64,000 bases of DNA from Bacteroidia bacterium (GCA_022072225.1 JAJVIC010000007.1:366150-430149), one strand, 5' to 3'. Counted from the first letter of the stretch, positions 3,422 through 39,800 are shown. Made by a program: numbers and translations. The notes: a model not told the origin generated them from the sequence alone.

Positions 3422-4096
3422 ATGAATAAAGTAAAAGTATCGGTAAATCATTACCACAAATTAGCTTACAGTAAGCTGGGCGTATTTGTAACAGGAGTAA
3501 AGGCGGGTATTTATAATCATCCCGAAACATTCAGCGATACTCCATTCAGCGAAGAAGAAGTAAGTGATACACTTAAAAACTACACCAAAACCTATGACGG
3601 TTATAAAAACAGGCTCGTGTCAAAAGGAAGTTTTAAAAGTGCTTGCAGCGCTCTTATAAAGATGCTCGACACGCTTGCGGTTTATGTAAACGAAACAGCA
3701 GAAGGTGATTACACTATACTAATTCTATCGGGCTTTAAACCCACACAGTCAAGCATCAGTTCATGGCTTCCGCCCTTGCAGCCCGAGGTAAAAGTATGGC
3801 GCAGCATAGAGCTGGGCGAAGTGTATGCAGAAAGCAATAAGCTGGTCAATGCCATTTATTACGGCTGCGTGGTTTTTAAAAACAGTGTGCCCGAAAAAAT
3901 TATGATAAAGCCCGGTGGAAAATTAGAATTCAGTAACAATGAAAATTTTGTGTGCATAGATATTACCAAAAGCCGCAGCAAAAAATTTATAAATCTTACC
4001 CCTGAGGTGATGTATTACTTTTATTTTTATGCAGCCAACGCCAATGGTGTAAGCCTGTTAAGCGAAGTAAAAAGTATTAAATGTTTGAAGGAGTAG
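3422..4096 (+). CDS. hypothetical protein
   Basis: 224 aa ORF directly downstream of the motif array; no recognisable domain. Confidence 0.45.
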   Translation: MNKVKVSVNHYHKLAYSKLGVFVTGVKAGIYNHPETFSDTPFSEEEVSDTLKNYTKTYDGYKNRLVSKGSFKSACSALIKMLDTLAVYVNETAEGDYTILILSGFKPTQSSISSWLPPLQPEVKVWRSIELGEVYAESNKLVNAIYYGCVVFKNSVPEKIMIKPGGKLEFSNNENFVCIDITKSRSKKFINLTPEVMYYFYFYAANANGVSLLSEVKSIKCLKE

Positions 4097-4120
4097 CGAA
4101 CAGTAAGTAGTTGGCAGTTG

Positions 4121-4204
4121 GTGTGTCACCCTGAGCGTAGTCGAAGGGCTTTATTTATTAAACTTTAGCAGTTAGTGTGTCACCCTGAGCGTAGTCGAAG
4201 GGCT
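4121..4204. repeat. two direct copies of REP-A element (GTTGGTGTGTCACCCTGAGCGTAGTCGAAGGGCT)
   Basis: copies at 4123-4150 and 4168-4204; same element at 4286-4313 (inverted), 4673-4698, 4721-4746, 19700-19755, 23571-23630 and 34371-34395, and a variant at 7243-7303. Confidence 0.6.
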
Positions 4205-4285
4205 AAATAATTATTTTTCCTGGATGTGTCTTACTGGTATACTCAAGCTGTTTTAAAGTATTTAAAAGTGAAATTTAATTATGAT

Positions 4286-4313
4286 GCTTCGACTACGCTC
4301 AGCATGACACAGC
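4286..4313. repeat. REP-A element, inverted orientation
   Basis: GCTTCGACTACGCTCAGCATGACAC is the reverse complement of the 4123 copy. Confidence 0.55.
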
Positions 4314-4321
4314 AAAAGCAC

Positions 4322-4654
4322 TCAATCGCTTTTTTTATCATACAAGCTGTAATTACTCAGATTATAACACGCTGCAAAATCTTTTAGCTTTTCCCAATTT
4401 TCATTAATCAAAGCTTCTTTTTTTCTGCGCGTCCATTTCTTCAATTGTTTCTCTCTTGCAATAGCTTGCTCGAATTCCTTAAATGCTTCCACATACATAA
4501 GCTTAACAGGTCTGCGATCATAAGTATATGCTGAAACATCTGTTCCATAATTATGATAACTTATTCGCTCGTTAACATCATTTGTAACACCAATATAATA
4601 ACTGTTATCAGAACACAGCAAAATATAGACATAGAGTTGTTTGAACACAGCCAT
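4322..4654 (-). CDS. GIY-YIG nuclease family protein (UPF0213-like)
   Basis: 110 aa; LYVYILLCSDNSYYIGVTNDVNERISYHN matches the GIY-(x10)-YIG signature, followed by the conserved R and E region (AIAREKQLKKW). Confidence 0.8.
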   Translation of the reverse strand: MAVFKQLYVYILLCSDNSYYIGVTNDVNERISYHNYGTDVSAYTYDRRPVKLMYVEAFKEFEQAIAREKQLKKWTRRKKEALINENWEKLKDFAACYNLSNYSLYDKKSD

Positions 4655-4672
4655 TAACCAAAAATAATAAAA

Positions 4673-4746
4673 CCCTTCGACTACGCTCAGGGTGACACTA
4701 TTGCTGTAAAATATTTATAACCCTTCGACTACGCTCAGGGTGACAC
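4673..4746. repeat. two REP-A copies in inverted orientation (CCCTTCGACTACGCTCAGGGTGACAC)
   Basis: copies at 4673-4698 and 4721-4746; together with 4123-4313 they bracket the GIY-YIG ORF. Confidence 0.6.
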
Positions 4747-4763
4747 GTGCTAGCAATGCAACC

Positions 4764-6149
4764 TTACACCATCTTCTTCGGGTCAACCCATTGATCAAAC
4801 TGCTCGTTGGTAAGCAAGCCTAATTCTATTGCAACCTGACGAAGTGTTTTGTGTTCCTTGTGTGCTTTCTTGGCAATTTTTGCTGCGTTCTCGTAACCGA
4901 TATGCGGGTTTAAAGCTGTAACCAGCATCAGACTTTTTTCAAGGTGTTCTTTTATCAGTTCCAGATTTGGTTCCAGTCCGATTGCACACTTATCATTAAA
5001 CGAAACACAGGCATCGCCAATCAATCGTGCCGATTGTAAAACATTGGCTGCAATTACCGGTTTAAAAACATTCAGTTCAAAATGTCCGGTTGCACCGCCA
5101 ACAGAAACAGCCACATCATTTCCGATTACCTGTGCGCAAACCATGGTCATTGCTTCAGGTTGTGTGGGATTTACTTTTCCGGGCATAATGGAAGACCCGG
5201 GTTCATTGTCGGGAATAATAATTTCACCAATTCCAGAACGGGGACCTGAACTTAACATGCGAATATCGTTTGCAATTTTCATCAGCGAAACTGCCGAGCG
5301 TTTCAACGCTCCTGAAAGTTCTACCATTGCATCGTGTGCTGCCAGTGCTTCAAATTTATTAGGTGCAGTTACAAACGGAAGTCCTGTTAACTCAGCAATT
5401 TTTTTCGCCACCAACACATCATAACCTTTCGGTGCATTTAATCCTGTGCCGACTGCTGTTCCGCCCAGTGCAAGCTCTTTTACCGCTTCCAACGCATTGT
5501 TTAATGCACGCATGCTGTTGTCGATTTGCTGCACGTATCCCGAAATTTCCTGTCCGAGCGTAAGCGGTGTTGCATCCATAAAATGCGTGCGGCCAACTTT
5601 AACAATGTCTTTAAATTGGTTTGATTTTGATGCAAGTGTATCACGCAACTTTTTCATTCCGGGAATAGTAATTTCTACTACCTGCTTGTAAGCCGCAATG
5701 TGCATGGCAGTCGGAAATGTATCGTTTGATGATTGTGATTTATTTACATCATCATTCGGGTGCAATACTTTTTTCTCATCAGATAATTTTCCTCCTGAAA
5801 TTACATGGGCGCGGTAAGCAATCACTTCATTCATATTCATGTTGCTTTGTGTTCCGCTTCCGGTTTGCCAGATTACCAACGGAAATTCACCGTCTAATTT
5901 TCCGGCAAGAATTTCGTCACAGGTTTTTGCAATCAGGTCGCATTTGTCCTGCGATAAAACTTTTAATTCTGTATTTGCCTGCGCAGCCGCTTTTTTCAGG
6001 TATGCAAAGGCATAAATAATTTCGCGGGGCATGCTTGCTTCCGGTCCGATTTTAAAGTTGTTACGCGAGCGTTCTGTTTGTGCTCCCCAATATTTATCGG
6101 CAGGCACTTTTACCTCGCCCATCGTGTCTTTTTCTATTCTGTATTCCAT
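4764..6149 (-). CDS. fumC: class II fumarate hydratase
   Basis: 461 aa; N-terminus [28 protein letters not shown]; [13 protein letters not shown] signature of the fumarase/aspartase family. Confidence 0.92.
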
Positions 6150-6285
6150 TTTTTGTTTTGTTTTTGCGGTGGCAAAAGTATCAACAAATCATACGCGAAT
6201 ATGCTTTGCATTAAAATCTTTTGACAACCCTGTTTTTAGGGATAAAAAATTACTTTTATGCCGTTTTAATTTTGCATTGCTTGCA

Positions 6286-7239
6286 ATGATTGTTTTAAAT
6301 AAAAATATCCTGTTTCTTGATACTGTTCACACCGCCCTGCGCGATGAACTGAAAAAAATTGGCTGCCATTGCGAGCTGGATGATAAGAGCAGCAAAGAAG
6401 AAATAGAGCGAAAGATTGGAGATTATGATGGTCTTGTTATCCGCAGCCGCATAAAAATTGATGCCGCGCTGATTGACAAAGCAACAAGACTGAAATTCAT
6501 TGCGCGTGCCGGAGCAGGAATGGAAAACATTGATGTGGAATATGCCGCCAGAAAAAAAATAAAATGCATTCATGCTCCCGAAGGTAACCGCGATGCAGTG
6601 GGTGAACACGCCCTGGGCATGTTGCTTTCGCTGATGAATAATTTGAATAAAGCAGACAGAGAAGTGCGCGAGGGAAAATGGCTGCGCGAAGAAAACCGCG
6701 GACACGAGCTGATGTTTAAAACCGTAGGAATCATCGGTTACGGAAATATGGGAAGTGCTTTTGCCCGCAGGCTCAACGGATTTAGTGTTATGGCAATGGC
6801 GTATGACAAATACAAGAAAAATTTTGGCGATGATTTTATCATTGAAGCCAACATGGAAGCGCTTTACGAAGAAGCGGAAGTAGTGAGTCTGCACGTACCG
6901 CTTACCAAGGAAACAGAGTACATGGTAAACGATGAATTCATCAGCCGGTTTAAAAATCCGTTTTATCTCATTAATACTTCACGCGGGAAAGTGGTAAAGA
7001 CGGATGACCTGGTGAAGCACATAAAATCAGGAAAAATACTTGGAGCAGCGTTGGATGTTTTGGAATACGAAACCTCATCGCTTGAAAAATTAGAACCAAA
7101 AGATTTGCCGCCTTCATTAAAGTATCTTTACGAAAGCGATAAAGTAATTCTCACCCCTCATATTGCCGGCTGGACTTATGAAAGCAATCAGCGCATTTCA
7201 TTAGTGCTGGCAGAAAAAATTGCGAAGATTTTGAAATAA
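6286..7239 (+). CDS. D-isomer-specific 2-hydroxyacid dehydrogenase (D-3-phosphoglycerate dehydrogenase SerA-like)
   Basis: NAD-binding GIIGYGNMGSAFARRL; catalytic-domain layout of the 2-hydroxyacid dehydrogenase family; the ORF-track start at 6031 is probably upstream read-through, the internal ATG at 6286 (MIVLNKNILF) gives about 317 aa. Confidence 0.7.
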   Translation: MIVLNKNILFLDTVHTALRDELKKIGCHCELDDKSSKEEIERKIGDYDGLVIRSRIKIDAALIDKATRLKFIARAGAGMENIDVEYAARKKIKCIHAPEGNRDAVGEHALGMLLSLMNNLNKADREVREGKWLREENRGHELMFKTVGIIGYGNMGSAFARRLNGFSVMAMAYDKYKKNFGDDFIIEANMEALYEEAEVVSLHVPLTKETEYMVNDEFISRFKNPFYLINTSRGKVVKTDDLVKHIKSGKILGAALDVLEYETSSLEKLEPKDLPPSLKYLYESDKVILTPHIAGWTYESNQRISLVLAEKIAKILK

Positions 7240-7242
7240 CCC

Positions 7243-7303
7243 GTCACCCTGAACTTGTTTCAGGGTCTCACAAATCAAGATGCTGAAACAAGTTCAGCAT
7301 GAC
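7243..7303. repeat. REP-A variant forming a double hairpin (GTCACCCTGAACTTGTTTCAGGGTC ... GCTGAAACAAGTTCAGCATGAC)
   Basis: inverted repeat between the dehydrogenase stop and the aminotransferase start; its core GTCACCCTGA is shared with REP-A. Confidence 0.45.
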
Positions 7304-7316
7304 GAAACAAATAAAT

Positions 7317-8399
7317 ATGGATAAACTACTCTTCACTCCCGGACCTTTAACCACCAGCAAAACCGTTAAAGAAGCCATGCTTCACGATTACGGTTCGCGC
7401 GATGATAAATTTGTAACCATTGTTCGCGAAGTGCGTGAGAAATTGCTGGCACTTGCCGGAGTTTCAAAACAACAAGGCTATGAAACTGTGATTGTGCAAG
7501 GCTCGGGTACATTTGGCATTGAAGCAACCATTTCTTCGTCTGTTCCGCGTAATGGCCATTTGCTGATTGTAATCAACGGAGCCTATGGTCACCGTATGGC
7601 AAAGATTTGCAGTGTGCACGGTATCAAACACACATCATTGGTTTTTGCTGAAAATGAAATTCCAACCCTTGAGAAAACAGAAGATGCCCTGAAAAATGAC
7701 AACACAATAACACACCTTGCCATTGTTCACAGCGAAACCACCACCGGAATATTTAATCCCATTAAAGAATTTGGTGCGCTTGCCGCAAAGTATAACAAGA
7801 CGTATATTGTTGATGCCATGAGCAGTTTTGGTGCTGTTCCGGTAAATGTTGAAGAGTTTAATATTGATTTTCTCGTTTCTTCTTCCAATAAATGTATTGA
7901 GGGAGTTCCCGGCTTTTCATTCATTATTGCTAAGCGCGAAAAACTTTTGCAGTGCAAAGGACAGGCAAGAAGTCTTGTTTTGGATGTTTTTGCGCAGTGG
8001 GAAGGTTTGGAAAATGACGGACAATTTCGTTTTACTCCGCCAACACACAGCTTGGCGGCATTTCATAAAGCCCTGGAAGAATTAGAGGAAGAAGGAGGAG
8101 TGGCGGCACGTGCCGAACGCTACAAAGAAAACTACCAAACCCTTGTTGCCGGAATGCGCAAACTGGGTTTCAAAGAATACCTTGAACCCGAAAAACAGGG
8201 CTATATCATTACTTCGTTTCTGTATCCGGAGGGGAATTTCAACTTTAAACAGTTTTATAATGCATTGAACGATAAAGGTTTTGTTATTTATCCCGGTAAA
8301 CTAAGTCAGGCAGATGCTTTCCGTATCGGTAACATAGGAAAACTTTACCCAAAAGATGTGGAGGCTCTCCTACATTCAATAGCTCTGCTTCTGAAATAG
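7317..8399 (+). CDS. class V pyridoxal-phosphate aminotransferase (AGXT/PhnW/archaeal-type SerC-like)
   Basis: N-terminal LLFTPGPLTTSKTVKEAM matches the AGXT/PhnW family; about 360 aa; start placed at the ATG at 7317 because the ATG at 7299 lies inside the REP hairpin. Confidence 0.7.
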   Translation: MDKLLFTPGPLTTSKTVKEAMLHDYGSRDDKFVTIVREVREKLLALAGVSKQQGYETVIVQGSGTFGIEATISSSVPRNGHLLIVINGAYGHRMAKICSVHGIKHTSLVFAENEIPTLEKTEDALKNDNTITHLAIVHSETTTGIFNPIKEFGALAAKYNKTYIVDAMSSFGAVPVNVEEFNIDFLVSSSNKCIEGVPGFSFIIAKREKLLQCKGQARSLVLDVFAQWEGLENDGQFRFTPPTHSLAAFHKALEELEEEGGVAARAERYKENYQTLVAGMRKLGFKEYLEPEKQGYIITSFLYPEGNFNFKQFYNALNDKGFVIYPGKLSQADAFRIGNIGKLYPKDVEALLHSIALLLK

Positions 8400-8782
8400 C
8401 ACGGTCGATTATGCCTCATATCAGGCATTTAAACGATTAACGCCTCAATTGTTAGCAAATTTTAACACCCCTGTTGAACTTTCGGGCAGGATTATTGTTA
8501 ATGTTACAACATCATTTAATAAATATGTTATGACCAAGCCCAAAAGAAAAGTGAGCAAAACCCCGCAAAAGAGGATAAAAGTGCAGTTGGATTATAAAAC
8601 CATCATCACAATTAACAGAATGGAGTCATTGAAAATGTGGCTCGAAAGATACCCGCAAGCAAAGGTTCTCGCTTAATAATCATTAATAATTCCTGACAGG
8701 CAAGCAGTTCTGTCAGGTATGGCATGTTGCAATGTTCTGTAGTTTTTTAGATTACAGATGGTTCATAGATTTTCTAAAAGAA

Positions 8783-19694: not shown

Positions 19695-20734
19695 GAAAGT
19701 TGGCAGTCGGCAGTTGGCAGTTGGCAGTTTGTCACCTCGAGCGTAGTCGAGAGGCTTTAATAATTCTTTTTTCTGTACTGCTTGTTTCTTCCTGTCAGAA
19801 TGAAACCGACAAACCCAAACCCGTTGACGTTCCCGTTCCTCCTGCCAAAGTAGTTCCCACTCCCGACTTTAATCAGGACTCGGCTTTTCAATTTGTAAAA
19901 AAGCAGGTTGACTTTGGTCCCCGTGTTCCTAACTCTGCGGCTCATGCAAAATGTGCGGATTACCTCACCGCAAAGTTCAAAGAATACAAAGCAGAAGTTA
20001 TTGTTCAGCAGGCCGAGGCCAAAGCTTTTGACGGAAAAGTGCTGAAGATGAAAAACATCATTGCACAATGGCAGCCCGAAAAACAAAACCGCATCATGCT
20101 CTGCGCCCATTGGGATACCCGTCCCTTTGCCGACCAGGACACCAAAGACCTGAATAAACCCATTGACGGGGCCAACGATGGCGGAAGCGGGGTAGGAGTA
20201 CTGCTCGAGATCGGTCGTCAGCTTGCAGCCTCACAACCCAATATCGGTGTGGATATTATCCTCTTCGATGCCGAAGACTATGGTCAGCCAGATGGAGGTA
20301 TGCAACAGCAGCAAAGCAATTCCTACTGTCTTGGTTCACAATACTGGGCAACCAATAAACACAAACAGGACTATGCACCCCGTTACGCAATTCTCCTAGA
20401 TATGGTAGGCGCAAAAAATGCCACCTTCACCATGGAAGGTGTTTCCATGCAGTTTGCTTCGCATGTGGTAAAAAAAGTATGGGATACTGCTCTGCGCCTT
20501 GGCTACTCCAGCTACTTTGTTTATGACCAGACCAATCCTATTACAGACGACCATTATTACATCAACACTCTGGCCGACATCCCTGCCATAGACATCATCC
20601 ATTACGACCCCGCTACCAAATACCACTTTGCTCCCGTTTGGCACACCCACAACGACAACATCCAAAACATTGATCCCAAAACCCTGAAAGCGGTGGGGCA
20701 AACTTTGCTGGAGGTGGTGTATTCTTCTAATTAA
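19682..20734 (+). CDS. M28 family zinc peptidase / glutaminyl-peptide cyclotransferase-like lipoprotein
   Basis: CAHWDTRP...D...GANDGGSGVGVLLE...ILFDAEDYG metal-ligand pattern of the M28/QC fold; lipobox LLVSSC; start uncertain because the first ATG overlaps the cysS stop and the N-terminus reads through a REP-A copy. Confidence 0.6.
   Translation: MEFLRKLAVGSWQLAVCHLERSREALIILFSVLLVSSCQNETDKPKPVDVPVPPAKVVPTPDFNQDSAFQFVKKQVDFGPRVPNSAAHAKCADYLTAKFKEYKAEVIVQQAEAKAFDGKVLKMKNIIAQWQPEKQNRIMLCAHWDTRPFADQDTKDLNKPIDGANDGGSGVGVLLEIGRQLAASQPNIGVDIILFDAEDYGQPDGGMQQQQSNSYCLGSQYWATNKHKQDYAPRYAILLDMVGAKNATFTMEGVSMQFASHVVKKVWDTALRLGYSSYFVYDQTNPITDDHYYINTLADIPAIDIIHYDPATKYHFAPVWHTHNDNIQNIDPKTLKAVGQTLLEVVYSSN
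19700..19755. repeat. REP-A copy (GTTGGCAGTCGGCAGTTGGCAGTTGGCAGTTTGTCACCTCGAGCGTAGTCGAGAGGC)
   Basis: same core as 4123; lies inside the predicted 5' end of the M28 gene. Confidence 0.5.
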
Positions 20735-21175: not shown

Positions 21176-23563
21176 ATGAATAAAGTCATCATCTCCCTGC
21201 TTGTAATCCTTCTGGCAGGCATCACTGCTTCAAATGCGCAAAACCTTATTACCATTGACAGTCCGCAATACCAGCAACTGAAAAGCGAAGGCAAAATACC
21301 CATGATTCCCATGGAACAATTTGCCAAATACGTTCCCGAAAAAATATTGAATGCCGAAGACTTCGCACCCCGCGATGTTACCGGAGGCGGTCCCAATGTA
21401 AACTGCGGTTGCATGCAAACCCTTGATGGCAGCTACACCCTTGCCATGGGTCCTAACGATGACGGTTCTACAGGCCTTATCTCTTTGCCTTTTACTTTCT
21501 GCCTCTACGGAACAAGCCAAAACTCGATGTACATCAACAACAATGGAAACATCTCTTTTGGCACCACCTATGGTACCTTTTCTTCCAACCCTTTTCCCGA
21601 TCCCGGTTTTGTAATGGTTGCGCCTTTCTGGGCCGATGTGGATACCCGCGGAACAGGACAGGTATGGTACAAAGTAACTCCTACTTATGCCATTATCCGT
21701 TGGTACAACGTGGGCTACTACAGTTCACAAACCGATAAAATAAATGACTTCCAGCTTATTATTACCGATGGCAGCGACCCCATTATTCCCGGAGGTAACA
21801 ACGTAGCTTTTTGCTATGGCGATATGCAATGGACTACCGGCTCAGCTTCAAGCGGAGTGGGCGGCTTTGGCGGGACTCCCGCTACAGTAGGTGCTAACCT
21901 GGGCGATGGAACATCATTCGTTCAGTTTGGCCGTTTCGACCATGCCGGCAGCGATTACGATGGCCCTTTCAACAATGCCGATGGTATCAGCTGGCTCGAT
22001 AACCAGAGCTTTGTATTCAACGCCTGTGTAAATAATTCAAACATTGCACCCATTGCCGATAATGCCCTCGCCATCTGCGATACCATTCAAATCTGTGTGG
22101 GTGATACCGTTGCTTTTGATGTATCCTTCCTTTCGCCCGAACAAGGACAAATTACCACCACCACTATTGACACTTCAGGTGTTTCGGGTTTTCAGTTAAT
22201 CAGCAACAATTCAGGAAACATATCGTCTGTATCCGCAGTATTTTATGCCACCGAAGACAACATAGGCTTCAATACCTTCACCCTTTCGGCCAGCGACAAC
22301 GGAACTCCGGCACAAACCAACAACTTTGTGGTAAATATCTTTGTCAGCGAAATTGTTGATCCTTCCTTAATCGGTGAGTTTACCTATTGCGCTCCCGGAA
22401 GCGTAAGTATAACGCTCGACTCTGCTTTTGCCTATGAAAGCTGGACCTGGTCAACCGGTGATGTTAGTCCCGACTCGGTTTTAGACCCTTTGCTGGAAGG
22501 CAACTACTCTGTTACCTGCTTTAATGAGTACGGCTGCAACCGTACCCTCGATTTTTCGGTGGTTGAACTCGGTAACCTGCAAATAACCAATACCGTTACC
22601 GACATTCTTTGCAATGGCGCTGCCAACGGAAGCGTGGTTTCTCAGTCTAATGTACCTACTCAACTTTCATTCTTTTGGTCCGATTCACAGGGCGACACCA
22701 TTCATGTTGGTCTGCTTACACAGGGAACCGATCAGGTAAACGGTCTTGAACCCGGCACCTATTATGTTAGCATATACGATACACTGGGTTGTTTCTCTTA
22801 TTTAGACTCAGTAGTAGTTACCGAACCCGAGCCTTATGTAACCGACAACACAGCATCACCCGAAACCTGCGAAGATGCAAACGGAGTTGCTGTAGTTACC
22901 AGTGTTACGGGTAATACTGCGCCTTACAGCTATTTATGGTCGCCTTCAGGAGGAACGGATGCTACGGCAACCGGTCTTGCTGCCGGAACTTATACCGTTA
23001 CCATTACCGATGTTAATGGCTGCGAAAGAGTGGACACTGTTATTGTTTCGGGAATTGCTTCACCTACGGCCAACTTCAGCAGCGACCCGCTGGCTGCTTT
23101 GCTGGATGTTCCGGTTACCTTTGCCGACAGTTCGCTTGCCAATGGCGACAGCATTGTAACCTGGTTCTGGGATTTTGGCGATGGAACTACCGACTCGGTT
23201 CCTAACCCTGTTCATGCGTATGGTGATACCGGTACATACCCCGTAATGCTGGTTGTTACCAACACCGAAGGCTGCACCGACACCATTTATAACGACATTA
23301 TTGTAATTACCGAAATTGTAGTTCCTAATGTATTTACACCTAATGGCGATGGTTACAACGACACCTTTGTTATTCAATACTTAAAAGAACTTTACCCGGG
23401 CAGTAAACTGTATATCTACAACCGCTGGGGCAAACGTGTTTACAAAAGTGATAACTACCAGAACGACTGGGATGGTGAGAAACACAGCGAAGGAACTTAT
23501 TTCTATACGCTCTTTGTCTCTGACGGAACCGAGAAAAACGGAACAATTACTTTGCTGAGATAG
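21176..23563 (+). CDS. cell-surface protein: NIDO domain, SprB repeats, PKD domain and C-terminal CHU_C (type B T9SS / gliding-motility-associated) domain
   Basis: signal peptide ending ASNAQN; NIDO-like NISFGT...[12 protein letters not shown]; SprB-like CNGAANGS and [11 protein letters not shown]...[10 protein letters not shown] repeats; [14 protein letters not shown]; C-terminus [19 protein letters not shown]...[11 protein letters not shown]...WDG matches TIGR04131. Confidence 0.75.
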
Positions 23564-23570
23564 ACGATAT

Positions 23571-23630
23571 GTCACTTCGAGCGTAGTCGAGAAGTAATAA
23601 TCATGGCTTCTCGACTACGCTCGAAATGAC
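23571..23630. terminator. REP-A-derived perfect hairpin (GTCACTTCGAGCGTAGTCGAGAAG-N12-CTTCTCGACTACGCTCGAAATGAC), likely transcription terminator
   Basis: 24-bp perfect inverted repeat immediately after the stop codon of 21176-23563. Confidence 0.5.
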
Positions 23631-23656
23631 AACGTATTCTTAGAGTATCTTCTTCT

Positions 23657-27099: not shown

Positions 27100-27188
27100 C
27101 GGAGAGGTGTCCGAGTGGTCGAAGGAGCACGCCTGGAAAGTGTGTAAACCCCAAAAGGGTTTCGAGGGTTCGAATCCCTCTCTCTCCG
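27100..27188 (+). tRNA. tRNA-Ser (anticodon GGA)
   Basis: hand-folded cloverleaf: acceptor GGAGAGG/TCTCTCC (one G-U); anticodon stem CACGC/GTGTG; loop CTGGAAA; long variable arm TAAACCCCAAAAGGGTTTC; T-arm GAGGGTTCGAATCCCTC; discriminator G. Confidence 0.85.
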
Positions 27189-30880: not shown

Positions 30881-30917
30881 CTCTCCCCCTTTGGGGGAGT
30901 TGGAGGGGGCTTTTTTA
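30881..30917. terminator. GC-rich hairpin and T-run (CTCTCCCCCTTTGGGGGAGTTGGAGGGGGCTTTTTT)
   Basis: between the epimerase stop and the mfd start. Confidence 0.4.
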
Positions 30918-30935
30918 TCTTTACCCCGTTTTCTG

Positions 30936-33900
30936 ATGGATTTAGAGGCTGTAAAGAATAGTTTTTCGCAACACCCCCGCATCGCTGAACTGGTTAACTC
31001 GCTTTCGGCAGGGAATACTACGCGCATTCACATAAAAAATCTTGCCGGTTCATCTTCTGCTTTTGCTGCGGCAACTGTTGTTTTGCAAATCCCGAAAACA
31101 CATGTTTTTATTTTACCGGGCAAAGAAGAAGCTGCCTATTTTCTGAATGATATTGAAAACTTTCTCCCCTCTCCTGAGGGAGAGGGCTCGGGGGTGAGGG
31201 CGCTGTTTTTCCCCATGTCATACCGCAGACCCTATAGTGAAGAGGAACAGACCGACAATAGTAATGTGGTGGAACGTGCAGAAACACTGAACAAGCTTAA
31301 CCAGAATTTTGCACGTGCGGTTGTCACGTATCCCGAAGCACTTTCCGAAAAAGTAGTTACACGAAAAGTGTTGGAGAAAAATACCCTGCTGTTGAAAACA
31401 GGCGACACCCACGGAATTGATTTCATCACCGATATATTATTTGAATATCATTTCGAGCGTGTGGATTATGTTTTTCAGCCGGGACAATTTGCTGTGCGCG
31501 GTGGTATTGTTGATATGTTTTCGTTTTCAGGCGAGTATCCCTTGCGCGTTGAGTTTTTCGGAAATACAATTGAAAGCATCCGCAGCTTCGATCCCTCCAC
31601 TCAATTGTCGGTTGCTACTCATGCAAAGGCAACTATTTTGCCTAATGTGCAACAAAGTCTGCTGCACGAAAGCCGCGTTTCCTTTTTAGAGTTTATTCCG
31701 GTTGAAAGTGTAGTGTGGATTACCGATGTAAGAAGTGTTACTTCCGTTTTGGATAAAGAATTAGAATCGGCTAAAGAGGCCTACGCAGCCCTTTCCCTCG
31801 GAGAGGGCCCGGGGGTGAGGCTTTTGCCGCCCGAAGAAAAATATATCAGCGGAAATTATTTTATTGAGAAGTTTAATCAACACAGTGTGGTAGAATTCGG
31901 GCAGGCCGAATATTTTGATGATGTAAAAACGATTGAGTTCAATACTTCGCCACAACCGGCATTCAATAAGAATTTTGAAATGCTGGGCGAGCATTTGCGA
32001 AAGAACACTGCTGCCGGTTTTCAAAATCTTTTAGCGGCAGAAAATCCGAAGCAGGCAGAACGCCTGTATTCCATTTTTGAAGACATGCCAGTGAAAGCAG
32101 GTGAAAAGAAACCTGAATTTACTCCGTTAGTGGTTTCTGTTTCCGAAGGATTTACCGACCACGATTTAAAGATTTGTTTTTACACCGACCACCAGATTTT
32201 TGAACGTTATCACCGTTTCCGGTTGCGCACCGGATTTAAGAAAACAAAGGAAGCGCTTACGTTGAAAGAATTGCACGGTTTAAATCCGGGCGACTATGTT
32301 ACGCACATCGACCACGGCATCGGCAAGTTCGCAGGGCTTGAAAAAATTGATGTGAATGGAAAGATGCAGGAGGCTGTGCGATTGGTTTACCGCGACAATG
32401 ATATTCTGTATGTCAGCATTCATTCGCTTCACCGCATTGCAAAATATTCCGGCAAAGACGGAGCAGAACCCAAAATAAATAAGCTGGGCTCTGCTGCGTG
32501 GCAGGCATTGAAGCTGAAAACAAAATCGAAGGTTAAAGACATCGCCAAAGATTTAATCAAGTTGTATGCACAGCGCAGAGCAAAAAAAGGTTTTGAGTTT
32601 TCGCAGGACAATTATTTGCAGACCGAACTGGAGGCAAGCTTTATTTATGAAGATACGCCCGACCAGATTAAAGCAACTGCCGATGTAAAAAAAGACATGG
32701 AACAGAATTTTCCGATGGACCGCTTAATCTGCGGTGATGTTGGTTTCGGGAAAACAGAGATTGCAATTCGTGCTGCATTCAAAGCAGTCTGCGACAGCAA
32801 GCAGGTGGCAGTGCTTGTTCCAACAACTATTCTTGCCTTGCAGCATTACAAAACTTTTTCTGAGCGTTTGAAAAATTTCCCTTGTCGTGTCGATTACATC
32901 AACCGTTTTATAACTGCGGGACAACAAAAGGAAACACTCAAAAAATTAGAGAAAGGTGAGATTGATATCATCATCGGAACGCATCGCATTGTAAGCAAAG
33001 ATGTAAAGTTTAAAGACCTTGGTTTGTTGATTGTGGATGAGGAACAAAAGTTTGGCGTGGGTGTCAAAGAGAAATTGAAAGCCTTTCGTGTGAATGTGGA
33101 TACGCTTACGCTCACGGCAACTCCAATCCCGCGTACCTTGCAGTTTTCATTGATGGGCGCAAGAGATTTGAGCATTATCAATACACCTCCACCAAACCGT
33201 TTTCCGGTAATTACAGAAGTGCACACGTTCAACGAAGCTACAATTCGCGATGCTATCCGCTATGAGATTGACAGAGGCGGACAAGTCTTTTTTGTAAATA
33301 ACAGAGTCGAAAATATCCGTGAAGTAGCGGGAATGATTTCGCGCCTGTGTCCCGATGTGCGTGTTGGTATCGGGCACGGACAGTTGGAAGGACATCAGCT
33401 GGAAGATGTGATGATGAAATTTATTGAAGGCGAAACGGATGTGTTGATTGCTACTACCATTATTGAATCCGGATTGGATATTTCCAATGCGAACACCATC
33501 ATTATTAACAACGCACAGTATTTCGGGTTGAGTGATTTGCACCAGATGCGGGGCAGGGTAGGGCGTTCCAACAAAAAAGCATTCTGTTATTTATTGGCAC
33601 CACCCAGCGAAATGCTGAGCACCGAAGCAAAGAAACGTTTGCGTGCTATTGAAGAATTTTCGGAACTCGGCAGCGGTTTCAATATTGCCATGCGTGATTT
33701 GGATATTCGCGGAGCAGGAAATTTATTGGGTGCAGAACAAAGCGGATTTATTTCCGACATCGGATTTGAGATGTATCATAAAATTCTGGACGAGGCGTTA
33801 ACAGAATTAAGAATTGAAAATGAAGAATTAAGAATTGAAAATGAAAATAACATCAGACAAAAACATTCTGCATCCTTAATTCCTAATTCTGCATTTGTAA

Positions 33901-34355
33901 AAGATTGCGTGATTGACACCGACATGGCAATTCTTATTCCTGATGACTATGTGAATAATATTACCGACCGGCTCGGGCTTTACCGTGAACTGGATGACAC
34001 GGAAAATGAAAATGAATTAATCGTTTTTGAGAAAAATTTAATTGACCGTTTTGGTCCTTTACCAAAAGAAGCCACTGAATTATTAAACACCATTCGCTTG
34101 CGCTGGATTGCTAAAGAAATTGGTTTTGAGCGGTTGATTTTGAAAAATAAAAAGTTGACAGGCTATTTTATTTCTTCGCCAAACTCACTCTATTTCCAAA
34201 GTGATACTTTTGGTAAAGTGCTTAATTATGTGCAAACGCATGGCAAAGATTGCCGCATGACTCAGAAAGGGGATAAGCTGACGTTGAGTTTTGAGAATGT
34301 GGTTACGATTGGGGATGCAATCAAGTGGCTCAAAGCAATTCTTGTTGTTTCTTAA
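30936..34355 (+). CDS. mfd: transcription-repair coupling factor Mfd
   Basis: about 1,140 aa; UvrB-homology N-terminus; RNAP-interaction domain; superfamily 2 helicase motifs (CGDVGFGKTEIAIRAAF, LIVDEEQKFGV, TATPIPRTL, QMRGRVGRS); TRG/C-terminal domain. Confidence 0.92.
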   Translation: MDLEAVKNSFSQHPRIAELVNSLSAGNTTRIHIKNLAGSSSAFAAATVVLQIPKTHVFILPGKEEAAYFLNDIENFLPSPEGEGSGVRALFFPMSYRRPYSEEEQTDNSNVVERAETLNKLNQNFARAVVTYPEALSEKVVTRKVLEKNTLLLKTGDTHGIDFITDILFEYHFERVDYVFQPGQFAVRGGIVDMFSFSGEYPLRVEFFGNTIESIRSFDPSTQLSVATHAKATILPNVQQSLLHESRVSFLEFIPVESVVWITDVRSVTSVLDKELESAKEAYAALSLGEGPGVRLLPPEEKYISGNYFIEKFNQHSVVEFGQAEYFDDVKTIEFNTSPQPAFNKNFEMLGEHLRKNTAAGFQNLLAAENPKQAERLYSIFEDMPVKAGEKKPEFTPLVVSVSEGFTDHDLKICFYTDHQIFERYHRFRLRTGFKKTKEALTLKELHGLNPGDYVTHIDHGIGKFAGLEKIDVNGKMQEAVRLVYRDNDILYVSIHSLHRIAKYSGKDGAEPKINKLGSAAWQALKLKTKSKVKDIAKDLIKLYAQRRAKKGFEFSQDNYLQTELEASFIYEDTPDQIKATADVKKDMEQNFPMDRLICGDVGFGKTEIAIRAAFKAVCDSKQVAVLVPTTILALQHYKTFSERLKNFPCRVDYINRFITAGQQKETLKKLEKGEIDIIIGTHRIVSKDVKFKDLGLLIVDEEQKFGVGVKEKLKAFRVNVDTLTLTATPIPRTLQFSLMGARDLSIINTPPPNRFPVITEVHTFNEATIRDAIRYEIDRGGQVFFVNNRVENIREVAGMISRLCPDVRVGIGHGQLEGHQLEDVMMKFIEGETDVLIATTIIESGLDISNANTIIINNAQYFGLSDLHQMRGRVGRSNKKAFCYLLAPPSEMLSTEAKKRLRAIEEFSELGSGFNIAMRDLDIRGAGNLLGAEQSGFISDIGFEMYHKILDEALTELRIENEELRIENENNIRQKHSASLIPNSAFVKDCVIDTDMAILIPDDYVNNITDRLGLYRELDDTENENELIVFEKNLIDRFGPLPKEATELLNTIRLRWIAKEIGFERLILKNKKLTGYFISSPNSLYFQSDTFGKVLNYVQTHGKDCRMTQKGDKLTLSFENVVTIGDAIKWLKAILVVS
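31161..31202. repeat. GC-rich mini-element inserted in-frame in mfd (TCCCCTCTCCTGAGGGAGAGGGCTCGGGGGTGAGGGCG, encoding LPSPEGEGSGVRA)
   Basis: second near-identical copy at 31788-31825 (CCCTCGGAGAGGGCCCGGGGGTGAGGCT, encoding LSLGEGPGVRL); both are far more GC-rich than the surrounding mfd sequence. Confidence 0.45.
31788..31825. repeat. second copy of the GC-rich mini-element within mfd
   Basis: 19 of 20 nt identical to the core GAGAGGGCYCGGGGGTGAGG of the first copy. Confidence 0.45.
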
Positions 34356-34370
34356 ACTCGTACGCCAAAT

Positions 34371-34395
34371 GTCACCCTGAGCGTAGTCGAAAGGC
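34371..34395. repeat. REP-A copy (GTCACCCTGAGCGTAGTCGAAAGGC)
   Basis: between the mfd stop and the low-GC islet. Confidence 0.55.
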
Positions 34396-36835: not shown

Positions 36836-39800
36836 TTATTCAAGTACCGTAACGTTTCCGGTGTTGCTGAAGCGGCCGTTTTCGTATTCCATACCTTCCC
36901 ATTGTGTTCCGTCCATGAAAGTTGCATCGGCTTTCCAGATGTAAGCACCCTGCGGAACAACTACTCCGTTGTAGCGACCGTCCCAGCCTTCAACCGGTTT
37001 GCCATCTACCAGCTTGCTTGATTCCCAGAGCAGGTTACCCCACTTGTCAAATATCATGCAGCGGTAAGTTGCAATGCCAATTCCTTTTGGCAGGAAGTAT
37101 CCGAAGTCGCCATCGCCACCAACTATAAATGCATTAGGCATATACAAACCTTTGAAAAGTTCTACTTCAACGGTTTGAACAATCGTGTCTGCACATCCTG
37201 CACCGCTTGTAGCAATCAGCATTACATCAAATTCACCGTTTTCAAGATAGTTGTTTATCGGGTTTTCAAGCGTTGAAGTATTTCCGTCACCAAACGACCA
37301 GTCGTAAGTTGTTGCACCTACTGAAAGATTGGTGAATTGTATTTGTCCGTCAGGGTCAACGATGTTGTAATAATCAGAAGTGAAATCAGCTACCGGTGTT
37401 TGGAATACAGTTACAGCCGAAGTCAATTCAAGCGTATCGTTACAGATACCTCCACCGCTTACTACCAATGTTACGTTGTATGTTCCCGGAATTTCATACG
37501 TGTGTGAAGGGTTGCTTAGCATGGATGTATCTCCATCACCGAAGTTCCAGTAGTAAGTAACACCATCAACTGAATTGTTGGTAAAGTTCACAGTATAAGG
37601 AGCGCAACCTGAATTTCCGCTCAGCGAGAAGGATGCGGTTGGTGCAGGATATACATTGTAAACATAAACCGCAGTATCCACACAACCGCTGGCAGAAGTA
37701 GCAGTCAACACAACCGTATAAGTTCCCGTAGAGTCGAAATTTGCCTGTCCGTTCGTGGTTGTTGAAGTTGTTCCGTTTCCGAAGCTCCATGAATACTGTG
37801 TTGCATTCACAGAAGTATTTGTGAAATCAACGGTTACTGGATAGGTACACGAGTAAGTGTTTGAAGAAGGAACAGTGAATGCAGCTACCGGAGGCGTACT
37901 GATTGTTACAGTTACGCTGTCCTGAGTTCCTGTGCAACCCAAACCATCAGTTACGGTAACTACATAGGTCGTAGGCACTGAAGGCAACACAATGTGTGAA
38001 GCACCATTTCCAAGACCGTTGTTCCAGGTATAAGTATAAACGCCATTACCACCGGTTGCCGTTGCAGAGATGGTAACACTGTCGCCAGCGCACACTACAT
38101 TTCCAACGCTGTTGATGTCAGCAACTATTTGCGAAGGTTGTGTGATGGTGATAGTTTGCGAAGCAGCGCATCCGTTTGCATCTGTGGCTACTACTACATA
38201 AATTCCGGCTGCAAGACCTGTTGCAGTTGCACCTGTGTTAGCGCTTGGTGTCCAGTCATAGGTGTAAGGGGTTGTTCCGCCAGTTACCAGAACAGTTGCA
38301 GTTCCGTTTGCACCACCGAAGCAGGTAGGTTGTGAACTTCCCGCCAACAACATTGACATGTTGCCCGGAGCAATAATGGTAACTGTTGTACTGTCTGAAC
38401 AACCGGCTGCATCAGTTACTACTACCGTATGAATACCCGAAGTAAGGTTGGTGGCAGTTGCTGTGGTTTGTCCGTTATCCCATGCATAGGTATATGTTGG
38501 AGTTCCACCGGTTACACCCACAGTTGCAATACCGGTTGCAGAACCACCGCACGCAGGTTGAACAATGTTGGTGATTGCAGGAACAAGGTTGGCAGGTTCG
38601 CTTACTGTGAATGAAAGATTAAGAGCACAGCCTGCTGAGTCGGTAACGGTTACAGAATAATCACCCGCCACCAGATTTATTGCAGGTATAGTTGATTGTC
38701 CGTTGCTCCATGAATAGGTATAAGGAGCATTACCTCCGGCAACATCAAAGCTGATGCTTCCGTTGTTTCCACCGTTGCAGGTTACATTATTTACATCTAC
38801 ATCACCGGCAGAAAGCACAGCGTTTTCAGTAATCACGAAGTTAACGATAGTGATACAGTTGTTGGCATCACGGATTGTAACAGAGTGCAACCCGGCAGGT
38901 AAATCAGTAGCTGTTACAGTAGTTTGTCCGTTATCCCAAATGTAAGTGTATCCCGGAATACCGCCCGACACATCAACAGTAGCTTCGCCTGTAGCACCTC
39001 CTGCACAGCCAACATTTACCTGATTAATAATAGTTGCAACCATTGCAGTAGGTTGAGTAATTACAACAGTTAATGAGGTATCGCAACCGCTGGCATCCGT
39101 AATCTGAACAGTGTAATCACCTGCGCCAACACCATTGAGGTCTTCCGTTGTTGTGCCGTTTGACCATAGATACGTGTAAGGAGCAGTTCCGCCAATTACA
39201 TCAATGAATGCCGCTCCATTGCTGCCACCGTTGCAGGTAACATCTAAAATTGTGTTTACTGAAGCTGTTAAGCTTGGTGGTTCGGTAATGTCTGCAAAAA
39301 CAGTTTCTGAGCAACCATTAGCATCTACCACAGTTACCTGATGAATACCGAAAGCGAGACCTGTTGCTGTTTGTGTAGTTTGTCCGTTGGTCCATGAATA
39401 GGTGTAAGGAGCAACTCCGCCTGTTACGTTAACCGTTGCAGAACCATCAGCCTGTCCGCTGCAACTTACTGTAGAAGTATTGCTGATAACCGCAGTTAAT
39501 TGTGCAGGGTCAACAACAAGAACGGTATCGGTAGCAGAGCAGCCGTTAGCATCTGTTGCAGTTACAATGTATGTTCCTGCAAACAGGTTAGAAGCAACAT
39601 CACCTGTTTGTCCGTTGCTCCATAAGTAAGTATAAGGAGCAGTACCGCCCGCAGGGCTTGCAGTAACCACACCGTTGTTTGCACCGAAGCATGAAAGATC
39701 TTCACCATTGAAATCAGAAGTTACATCAGCACTTACGGTGAGTGTTACAGGGTCAGCAATAATAGCTTGAATGCTGTCGCTGCAACCATTTGCATCGGTA

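Follow-up and report, generated by a model that had tools for sequence, protein, structure and literature searches.

A small GIY-YIG nuclease gene framed by oriented hairpin repeats in a Bacteroidia genome

The stretch of DNA analyzed here (64 kb of a 460-kb MAG contig from a Bacteroidia bacterium; hereafter the window) contains a small GIY-YIG nuclease gene that sits between inverted copies of a hairpin repeat, and further copies of this repeat are dispersed over the same stretch. This arrangement raises the question of whether the nuclease and the repeat are partners and, if so, what the protein may do to the repeat. Pairing of this kind has been known since 2025 for the Ssn nucleases of Neisseria; here it involves a divergent branch of the protein and a hairpin that is built differently.

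The nuclease gene and the repeats in the window

Five copies of a 27-nt hairpin repeat (GTGTCACCCTGAGCGTAGTCGAAGGGC), one of them a variant (GTGTCATGCTGAGCGTAGTCGAAGCAT), surround the nuclease gene (Table 1). On the gene strand, the stop codon of fumC is followed by two copies in the same orientation as the gene, the gene itself, the variant in that same orientation, and two copies in the opposite one, such that oriented repeats are found on both sides (two upstream and three downstream). The proximal upstream copy ends 17 nt before the nuclease ATG, and the outermost downstream copy starts 27 nt past the stop codon of ORF 3422–4096. The arms of the inverted-repeat frame are 29–61 nt long and 77–97% complementary. 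A search with the 24-nt core (up to three mismatches) returned five matches, compared with 0.00 expected from 100 dinucleotide-preserving shuffles. The preliminary description of the locus had reported two direct and three inverted copies between 4123 and 4746, with a 110-aa GIY-YIG ORF inside an inverted-repeat frame, and this arrangement was recovered in full.

Table 1. Coordinates of the nuclease gene and of the hairpin elements in the window.
Feature	Position	Strand	Remarks
Hairpin repeat	4123–4149	+	Exact; outermost downstream copy, on the strand opposite to the gene
Hairpin repeat	4177–4203	+	Exact; downstream of the gene, opposite strand; arm of the inverted frame
Variant hairpin repeat	4284–4310	-	Gene strand; 11 nt downstream of the stop codon
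GIY-YIG nuclease gene	4322–4654	-	110 aa; Pfam PF01541, E=9.8e-19, residues 8–79
Hairpin repeat, proximal upstream	4672–4698	-	Gene strand; one mismatch, at the last base
Hairpin repeat, distal upstream	4720–4746	-	Gene strand; stem CCCT/AGGG; one mismatch, at the last base
CGTC-tagged hairpin	7243–7267	+	CGTC-ACCCTGAA-CTTGT-TTCAGGGT-C; perfect 8-bp stem; directly past ORF 6031–7239
CGTC-tagged hairpin partner	7279–7303	-	TGCT stem; head-to-head with the element at 7243
Dispersed copy	19729–19755	+	Stem CCTC/GAGG; intergenic
Dispersed copy	23569–23595	+	Stem CTTC/GAAG; directly past the stop codon of ORF 21176–23563
Dispersed copy	23606–23632	-	Stem TTTC/GAAG; inverted partner of the copy at 23569
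Dispersed copy	34369–34395	+	Stem CCCT/AAGG, one mismatch; directly past the stop codon of ORF 30891–34355

The protein has a single domain, with no second one found in Pfam or NCBIfam, and its length lies within the limit of 150 aa used for Ssn proteins. Its Pfam matches are confined to GIY-YIG and the related T5orf172 family, and the HUH/Y1 (IS200-like) transposase domain was not found; NCBIfam and PADLOC gave no meaningful matches, and TIGR01453 did not match. Unlike GIY-YIG homing endonucleases of the I-TevI type, the protein carries no extra DNA-binding domain. Several proteins of the clade (P0026, P0040, P0063, P0071, and P0085) end in STSSG/STSSD or FDKLRVT. These tails result from translation of the inverted repeat downstream of the gene; gene prediction thus often continues through the repeat or misplaces the end of the gene there.

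All copies in the window have the layout TGTCA-N4-GAGCGTAGTCGA-N4', with a common core (GAGCGTAGTCGA) and a 5' tag (TGTCA), and differ in the four bases that flank the core on each side. These changes are compensatory, the stem pairs being CCCT/AGGG, TGCT/AGCA, CCTC/GAGG, and CTTC/GAAG; in the variant downstream of the gene, for example, TGCT/AGCA replaces CCCT/AGGG. Outside the nuclease locus, copies had been proposed at 7243, 19700, 23571, and 34371. The last three correspond to copies starting at 19729, 23569, and 34369, which belong to the same family and have other compensatory stems, and an additional copy on the minus strand at 23606 was added to the dispersed set. The element at 7243, however, is a perfect CGTC-tagged hairpin of a different family. 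It is stable (-7.1 kcal/mol), and together with its partner at 7279 it represents a canonical CGTC-tagged REP (Di Nocera et al., 2013), with a matching stem of 8–9 bp and loop of 4–5 nt. This type of hairpin was ruled out as a second partner of the nuclease clade, as it is absent near 80 homologous genes.

Several other features of the window were recorded. Tandem GGCAGTT/GGCAGTC heptamers (19700–19728) lie directly 5' of the copy at 19729, and TTGGCAGTTGG, which resembles these heptamers, is found at 4111–4122, 5' of the copy at 4123. The opposed copies within 23569–23632 are 10 nt apart and could fold together into one long hairpin (about 64 nt) in the spacer between two ORFs that point in the same direction. 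The ORF at 36836–59626 on the minus strand (7596 aa) presumably encodes a giant surface/adhesin-type protein. An Rfam scan of the entire window at the gathering threshold gave a sole match, an 88-nt tRNA with a long variable arm at 27101–27188 on the plus strand.

Association and structure of the repeat across species

Homologs of the nuclease were collected by an alignment scan that retained one genome per species, giving 80 loci that represent the best-scoring relatives and not a random sample. These loci are mostly from Bacteroidota, with some from Nitrospirota, Peribacteria, Ignavibacteriae, and Vulcanimicrobiota. Whether GIY-YIG genes elsewhere are also associated with the repeat had been left as a point to check. 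Among these 80 best-scoring loci of other species, 70 have the motif, the definition of which was refined on the same loci, at a distance of no more than 500 bp from the gene, and it occurs on both sides of the gene in 41 of the 67 loci that have both flanks. Its density is 2.97 copies per kb near the gene versus 0.029 per kb beyond 1.5 kb, or, when only intergenic DNA of the same contigs is considered, 6.93 per kb near the gene versus 0.23 per kb elsewhere. The enrichment near the gene is 30 to 100 times. In addition, the closest copy upstream shares the strand of the gene at 43 loci and lies on the other strand at 15, and the closest copy downstream lies on the other strand at 48 loci and shares the gene strand at 11. 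With upstream copies on the gene strand and downstream copies on the opposite strand, the tags face outward. This degree of enrichment, together with the consistent frame, argues for a specific gene–repeat partnership, and the interpretation that the nuclease and its framing repeat are functional partners holds.

In the reverse direction, a nuclease gene is located within 500 bp of only four of the 81 metagenome copies that have adequate flanks (among the matches listed), indicating that most copies are dispersed, as in other repeat families. The NTS repeat of Neisseria behaves likewise, with most of its copies not beside the nuclease gene. A link to phages was also considered and rejected, since none of the 57 copies in 47 viral contigs with the motif has a GIY-YIG gene within 500 bp. 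One viral-classed IMG/VR contig (L212 and L232) carries four GAGCGTAGTCGA hairpins within 12 kb and no GIY-YIG gene nearby; it could be prophage or host DNA. In a comparison of the loci by loop-length class, which addressed co-evolution of protein and motif, the nearest protein neighbor belongs to the same class in 64 of 69 cases, a figure that is confounded by taxonomy, and the mean protein identity is 56% within classes versus 55% between them.

The structure of the repeat was examined by anchoring on the core only in the 80 loci of other species and the window. Among the 445 matches, 263 have perfectly complementary 4-nt arms, compared with 19.9 expected when the 3' arms are shuffled. The GTCA tag is present in 291 of these matches, 261 of which have a T directly before it. 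Metagenome contigs gave a similar picture, with perfect stems in 115 of 138 copies among the matches listed, even though the arms were unconstrained in the search. Because the arms covary and the tag and core stay fixed, the repeat can be described as a hairpin with a defined orientation, the 4-bp stem of which is free in sequence. Four Watson-Crick pairs enclose the 12-nt core; to reach 8 bp, the stem would have to include tandem G.A pairs. Both the 11-nt and the 12-nt cores would fit a register in which such pairs are combined with one G-C pair.

When folded alone as DNA, the hairpin has an energy of about -2 kcal/mol and a z-score of about 0, which is no better than shuffled sequence, and a stable REP palindrome was therefore rejected. 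The NTS hairpin of Neisseria reaches -8.9 kcal/mol in the same comparison. Being marginal on its own, the hairpin would need help from the nuclease protein to fold. A longer repeat with a GGCAGTT extension on the 5' side was likewise rejected, as the conservation there amounts to one T only (144 copies from the window and the metagenome matches listed). A known RNA family was rejected as well: in addition to the scan of the entire window, a permissive Rfam scan of 4050–4800 gave weak matches to miRNA/sRNA models only, which arise because the inverted repeat drives them. Matches to the core sequence in the literature were by chance only.

These properties bear on the possibility that the repeats act mainly at the level of RNA or double-stranded DNA, as stabilizers of 3' ends, terminators, or protein-binding sites, and that the nuclease gene is simply a frequent neighbor, for example a selfish gene homing into repeat clusters. 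Dispersed copies in the window do lie directly past stop codons in sense orientation, sense copies outnumber antisense copies at gene 3' ends (146 versus 95, with 493 copies considered), and many tagged REPs have been argued to be transcribed (PMC3733652). However, this orientation bias is modest, the hairpin alone is too weak for a terminator, and a T-rich 3' side follows just 45 of 144 copies (window and metagenome matches listed), which makes an intrinsic terminator a weak candidate. Rfam yielded chance matches only, the strong enrichment and consistent frame near the gene point to a specific partnership, and SsnA is inactive on RNA and double-stranded DNA (PMC11893778). A homing gene is further disfavored by the single-domain architecture of the protein. 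We consider this explanation improbable.

Conservation of gene order bears on whether the unit moves. In five Flavobacterium species, the nuclease gene occupies one locus between the same two neighbors, with flanks that are 76–87% identical, and the spacers contain one to four repeat copies, including visibly decayed ones. The same syntenic pattern is found in the Chryseobacterium/Epilithonimonas group (L002, L011, and L024). Given that the gene is syntenic in Flavobacterium and the repeats come and go, a resident, domesticated gene fits better than an actively moving element, and a resident gene with fast-turning repeats fits these observations. The alternative is that hairpin–gene–hairpin forms an IS-like mobile element with a GIY-YIG transposase, the dispersed repeats being its non-autonomous miniature derivatives in strict analogy to RAYT/REP or IS200/IS605; the same hypothesis was raised in the Ssn paper (PMC11893778). 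Such an element would account for the inverted frame with outward-facing tags, for the nucleotide similarity between non-syntenic loci, which is limited to the gene and about 25–70 nt on each side, for the presence of two nuclease copies in some genomes (L015 and L049, which are from one MAG, and L059), for the close relatives in all of the groups named above, from Bacteroidota to Vulcanimicrobiota, and for BIME-like alternating arrays at some loci. Nevertheless, only the repeats vary at the syntenic loci, some of them in decay, and neither a target-site duplication nor an empty site was found. Moreover, we know of no strand-transfer activity in single-domain GIY-YIG proteins. Although somewhat more plausible than an RNA or double-stranded DNA element, an IS-like unit is in our judgment unlikely.

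Two of the cases mentioned above deserve description in their own right. In L059 (Chitinophagaceae), GIY-YIG paralogs are located at about 8200–8500 and at 5012–5281, about 1.8 kb apart (the coordinates of the second copy are approximate), and both have about 84–94% nucleotide identity to the single copy in L029. In L053 (9618–10726), L034 (8428–9205), and L080 (9604–10295), arrays of 8–10 regularly spaced copies surround the nuclease gene. Copies of two stem classes, such as GCCT/AGGC and GGGT/ACCC, follow each other in alternation, each class on its own strand, which resembles the BIMEs of E. coli.

Relationships to Ssn nucleases, UPF0213 proteins, and tagged REPs

In N. meningitidis, the single-domain GIY-YIG protein SsnA (94 aa) binds just one strand of the NTS repeat (CGTCATTCCCGCGMAVGCGGGAATCYRG), requires this strand to be single-stranded, and cleaves it a few nucleotides upstream of the repeat; double-stranded DNA and RNA are not substrates (Chenal et al., 2025; PMC11893778). 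Mutation of Y6, Y17, or E64 abolishes cleavage, and four SsnA homologs also cut single-stranded DNA beside their own flanking hairpins on one strand only, with no action on double-stranded DNA or RNA (PMC11893778). The typical frame in N. meningitidis is NTS-ssnA-NTS, and the only biological role demonstrated is that SsnA lowers transformation by NTS-bearing DNA in vivo (PMC11893778). The gonococcal ortholog of ssnA (94 aa) was recovered together with nine NTS copies within 3.2 kb around it. Its source is a PLSDB plasmid record of 2.17 Mb (L081; NZ_CP119140.1) that is evidently an N. gonorrhoeae chromosome.

The window protein and gonococcal SsnA share 41% identity over 82 aa (BLASTP, pairwise E=2e-14), including an identical REKQLKKW stretch, and a profile comparison with hhalign gave a probability of 99.2%. 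Residues Y10, Y20, and E68 of the window protein align with Y6, Y17, and E64 of SsnA; in the alignment of the clade (A1), Y20 and E68 are invariant and Y10 is nearly so. Both systems combine a GIY-YIG protein of one domain and about 100 aa, in which the catalytic Tyr, Tyr, and Glu are conserved, with oriented hairpins that are tagged by (C/T)GTCA, frame the gene, and recur as dispersed copies between other genes. They differ in the hairpin, which has a variable 4-bp stem and a fixed core of 11–12 nt here and a sequence-specific perfect stem of 7–8 bp in NTS/SRM, and which is much less stable than NTS.

This difference is reflected in the published definitions. The SRM pattern, HGTCWYN(0-2)YYVSBRHN(0-5)WNVSBRGN(0-2)RNCYNB, has no match in the window and none within 500 bp of the gene at the 80 loci, whereas the same regular expression does find NTS. 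The published BLASTP definition of Ssn proteins requires at least 75% coverage and, for a search space the size of a proteome, E<1e-10 against SsnA. With the N. gonorrhoeae ortholog in place of the N. meningitidis protein, the window protein has E=1.75e-10 at a database size of 1.2 Mb (SsnA residues 2–82), narrowly above this cut-off, and only 18 of the 137 clade proteins pass it. With no match to the pattern and an E-value above the cut-off, the locus is not filed as an Ssn member sensu stricto. A Novosphingobium homolog of the SsnA group has canonical CGTC hairpins in its flanks, and no solved structure of SsnA was found in the PDB.

The protein also has clear affinity to the UPF0213 family. 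For almost all clade proteins (134 of 137), B. subtilis YazA (UPF0213) gives a higher score than SsnA does; this comparison stood in for the published criterion that the top CDD hit of an Ssn protein be cd10448 (GIY-YIG_unchar_3). The window protein itself scores 67 bits against YazA and matches the solved UPF0213 proteins BH0048 (PDB 1zg2; E=4.8e-13) and EF2693 (PDB 1ywl; E=2.2e-12); SsnA itself barely detects UPF0213 (16 bits). A small tree resolves three groups, namely SsnA-like proteins, the window group, and UPF0213. In the alignment, the N-terminal half of the window protein is UPF0213-like, sharing C-x-D-x-S-Y-Y-x-G-x-T and Y-T-x-x-R-R-P-V with that family, and the C-terminal half is SsnA-like, with an EKQ-x-K-x-W signature and a later Trp that are present in SsnA and absent from YazA.

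Genomic context separates the window gene from this family. UPF0213 genes at the loci examined are in conserved operons, as illustrated by yazA, which overlaps methyltransferase-gene neighbors in B. subtilis, and no such flanking repeats were found at the loci of B. subtilis yazA and of a Legionella homolog of the UPF0213 group. The window gene, unlike these, sits after fumC amid repeats. The UPF0213-type label given to the protein in the preliminary description thus agrees with the sequence scores but not with this operon context. On a Sphingomonas parapaucimobilis plasmid (L082, 1362–2660), a homolog of the window group with 44% identity has the same GAGCGAAGTCGA core in its flanks as the window gene, but with the tag GTTCA/GTTCG, and its gene has a 4-nt overlap with one for an RNA methyltransferase, a yazA-like context. 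This overlap and the higher scores against YazA and BH0048/EF2693 would be expected if the protein were an ordinary UPF0213/YazA-type housekeeping protein unrelated to the repeats, which would merely accumulate in a permissive spacer. However, the enrichment of the motif holds against other intergenic DNA of the same contigs, the orientation of the frame is non-random, the UPF0213 loci examined are without such repeats, and the C-terminal signature is that of SsnA. We consider an unrelated housekeeping protein highly improbable.

The repeat itself has affinities to previously described elements. The CGTC-tagged REPs, with a tag that is sometimes TGTC, were defined as a class that includes Neisseria dRS3 and occurs in Bacteroidetes, and no dedicated enzyme was found for them (Di Nocera, De Gregorio, and Rocco, 2013; PMC3733652). 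Like these elements, the nuclease-framing repeat is tagged, oriented, and palindromic, often occurs in opposed pairs, and is mostly downstream of genes. The T that precedes GTCA in most tagged copies also places it among elements with an unpaired CGTC, TGTC, or CCTC tag. In contrast, CGTC-tagged REPs have stems of 8–9 bp and loops of 4–5 nt, whereas in the nuclease-framing repeat the stem is interrupted and the core conserved.

Resemblance to the RAYT/REP and IS200/IS605 systems, which was also raised as a hypothesis for Ssn by Chenal et al. (PMC11893778), includes the presence of one resident nuclease gene between inverted copies of a hairpin repeat that is also dispersed and, by analogy, the presumed recognition of a single-stranded hairpin with a short unpaired tag. 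As with RAYTs, the gene is inherited vertically, the repeats turn over, and two hairpin types alternate in arrays. However, RAYTs are HUH/Y1 transposases with a GTAG tag, whereas the protein here is of the GIY-YIG type and the tag is TGTC, and, unlike in RAYT/REP and IS200/IS605, there is no evidence of transposition here. The preliminary description had suggested by analogy with RAYTs that the protein could be the mobilizing or processing enzyme of the repeat. The association at 70 of 80 loci and the homology to SsnA favor the processing part; the mobilizing part is unproven, both here and in the literature.

Proposed activity and implications

Based largely on analogy with Ssn, it is probable that the gene encodes a small single-domain GIY-YIG endonuclease, that its substrate is the repeat framing the gene, and that it cuts single-stranded DNA in an Ssn-like, strand-specific manner. 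This processing role is supported by homology and context, since SsnA (41% identical) binds and cuts its own flanking hairpin and the window gene has a comparable repeat context. In such a scheme, one strand would become single-stranded during replication, DNA uptake, conjugation, or repair, and the single-stranded T-GTCA-[4 nt]-GAGC-N3-4-TCGA-[4 nt'] could then fold into a short hairpin that consists of four Watson-Crick pairs of variable sequence, perhaps a tandem G.A/A.G step, and a single G-C pair that closes a loop of 5–6 nt. The protein would recognize the invariant tag and core, solely on that strand, and would cut a few nucleotides 5' of the tag, such that copies near the gene and dispersed copies alike could be sites of strand-specific single-strand cleavage. 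Possible roles include a restriction of incoming single-stranded DNA that carries the repeat, as known from Neisseria, or the seeding of new repeat copies. We infer the specificity for single-stranded DNA, the position of the cut, and any biological role from the behavior of SsnA.

A broader proposal is that cutting of single-stranded DNA guided by hairpins is also a property of UPF0213-like small GIY-YIG proteins, or was ancestral to them, and, in a stronger version, that hairpin–gene–hairpin is an autonomous generator of the dispersed copies. We put this forward tentatively, as a possibility that we doubt more than we favor. If it were true, a protein-stabilized, non-canonical hairpin would be recognized through its tag and core with the stem free to vary, a mode distinct from that of SsnA, for which the stem sequence matters, and this would represent a new programmable class of specificity. 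It would further point to an activity of YazA/YhbQ that could be tested, and an autonomous unit would provide the missing enzyme for TGTC/CGTC-tagged REPs.

Ssn enzymes have been described as the first site-specific nucleases that cut single-stranded DNA only, and the development of tools from them is under way; a branch with a fixed tag and core and a free stem would widen the specificities that can be used. The published search criteria would miss a large part of this family, which is found mainly in Bacteroidota but also in Nitrospirota, Peribacteria, and others. In addition, a very widespread intergenic repeat gains a candidate partner protein, and uncharacterized UPF0213 proteins become linked to an activity that can be tested.
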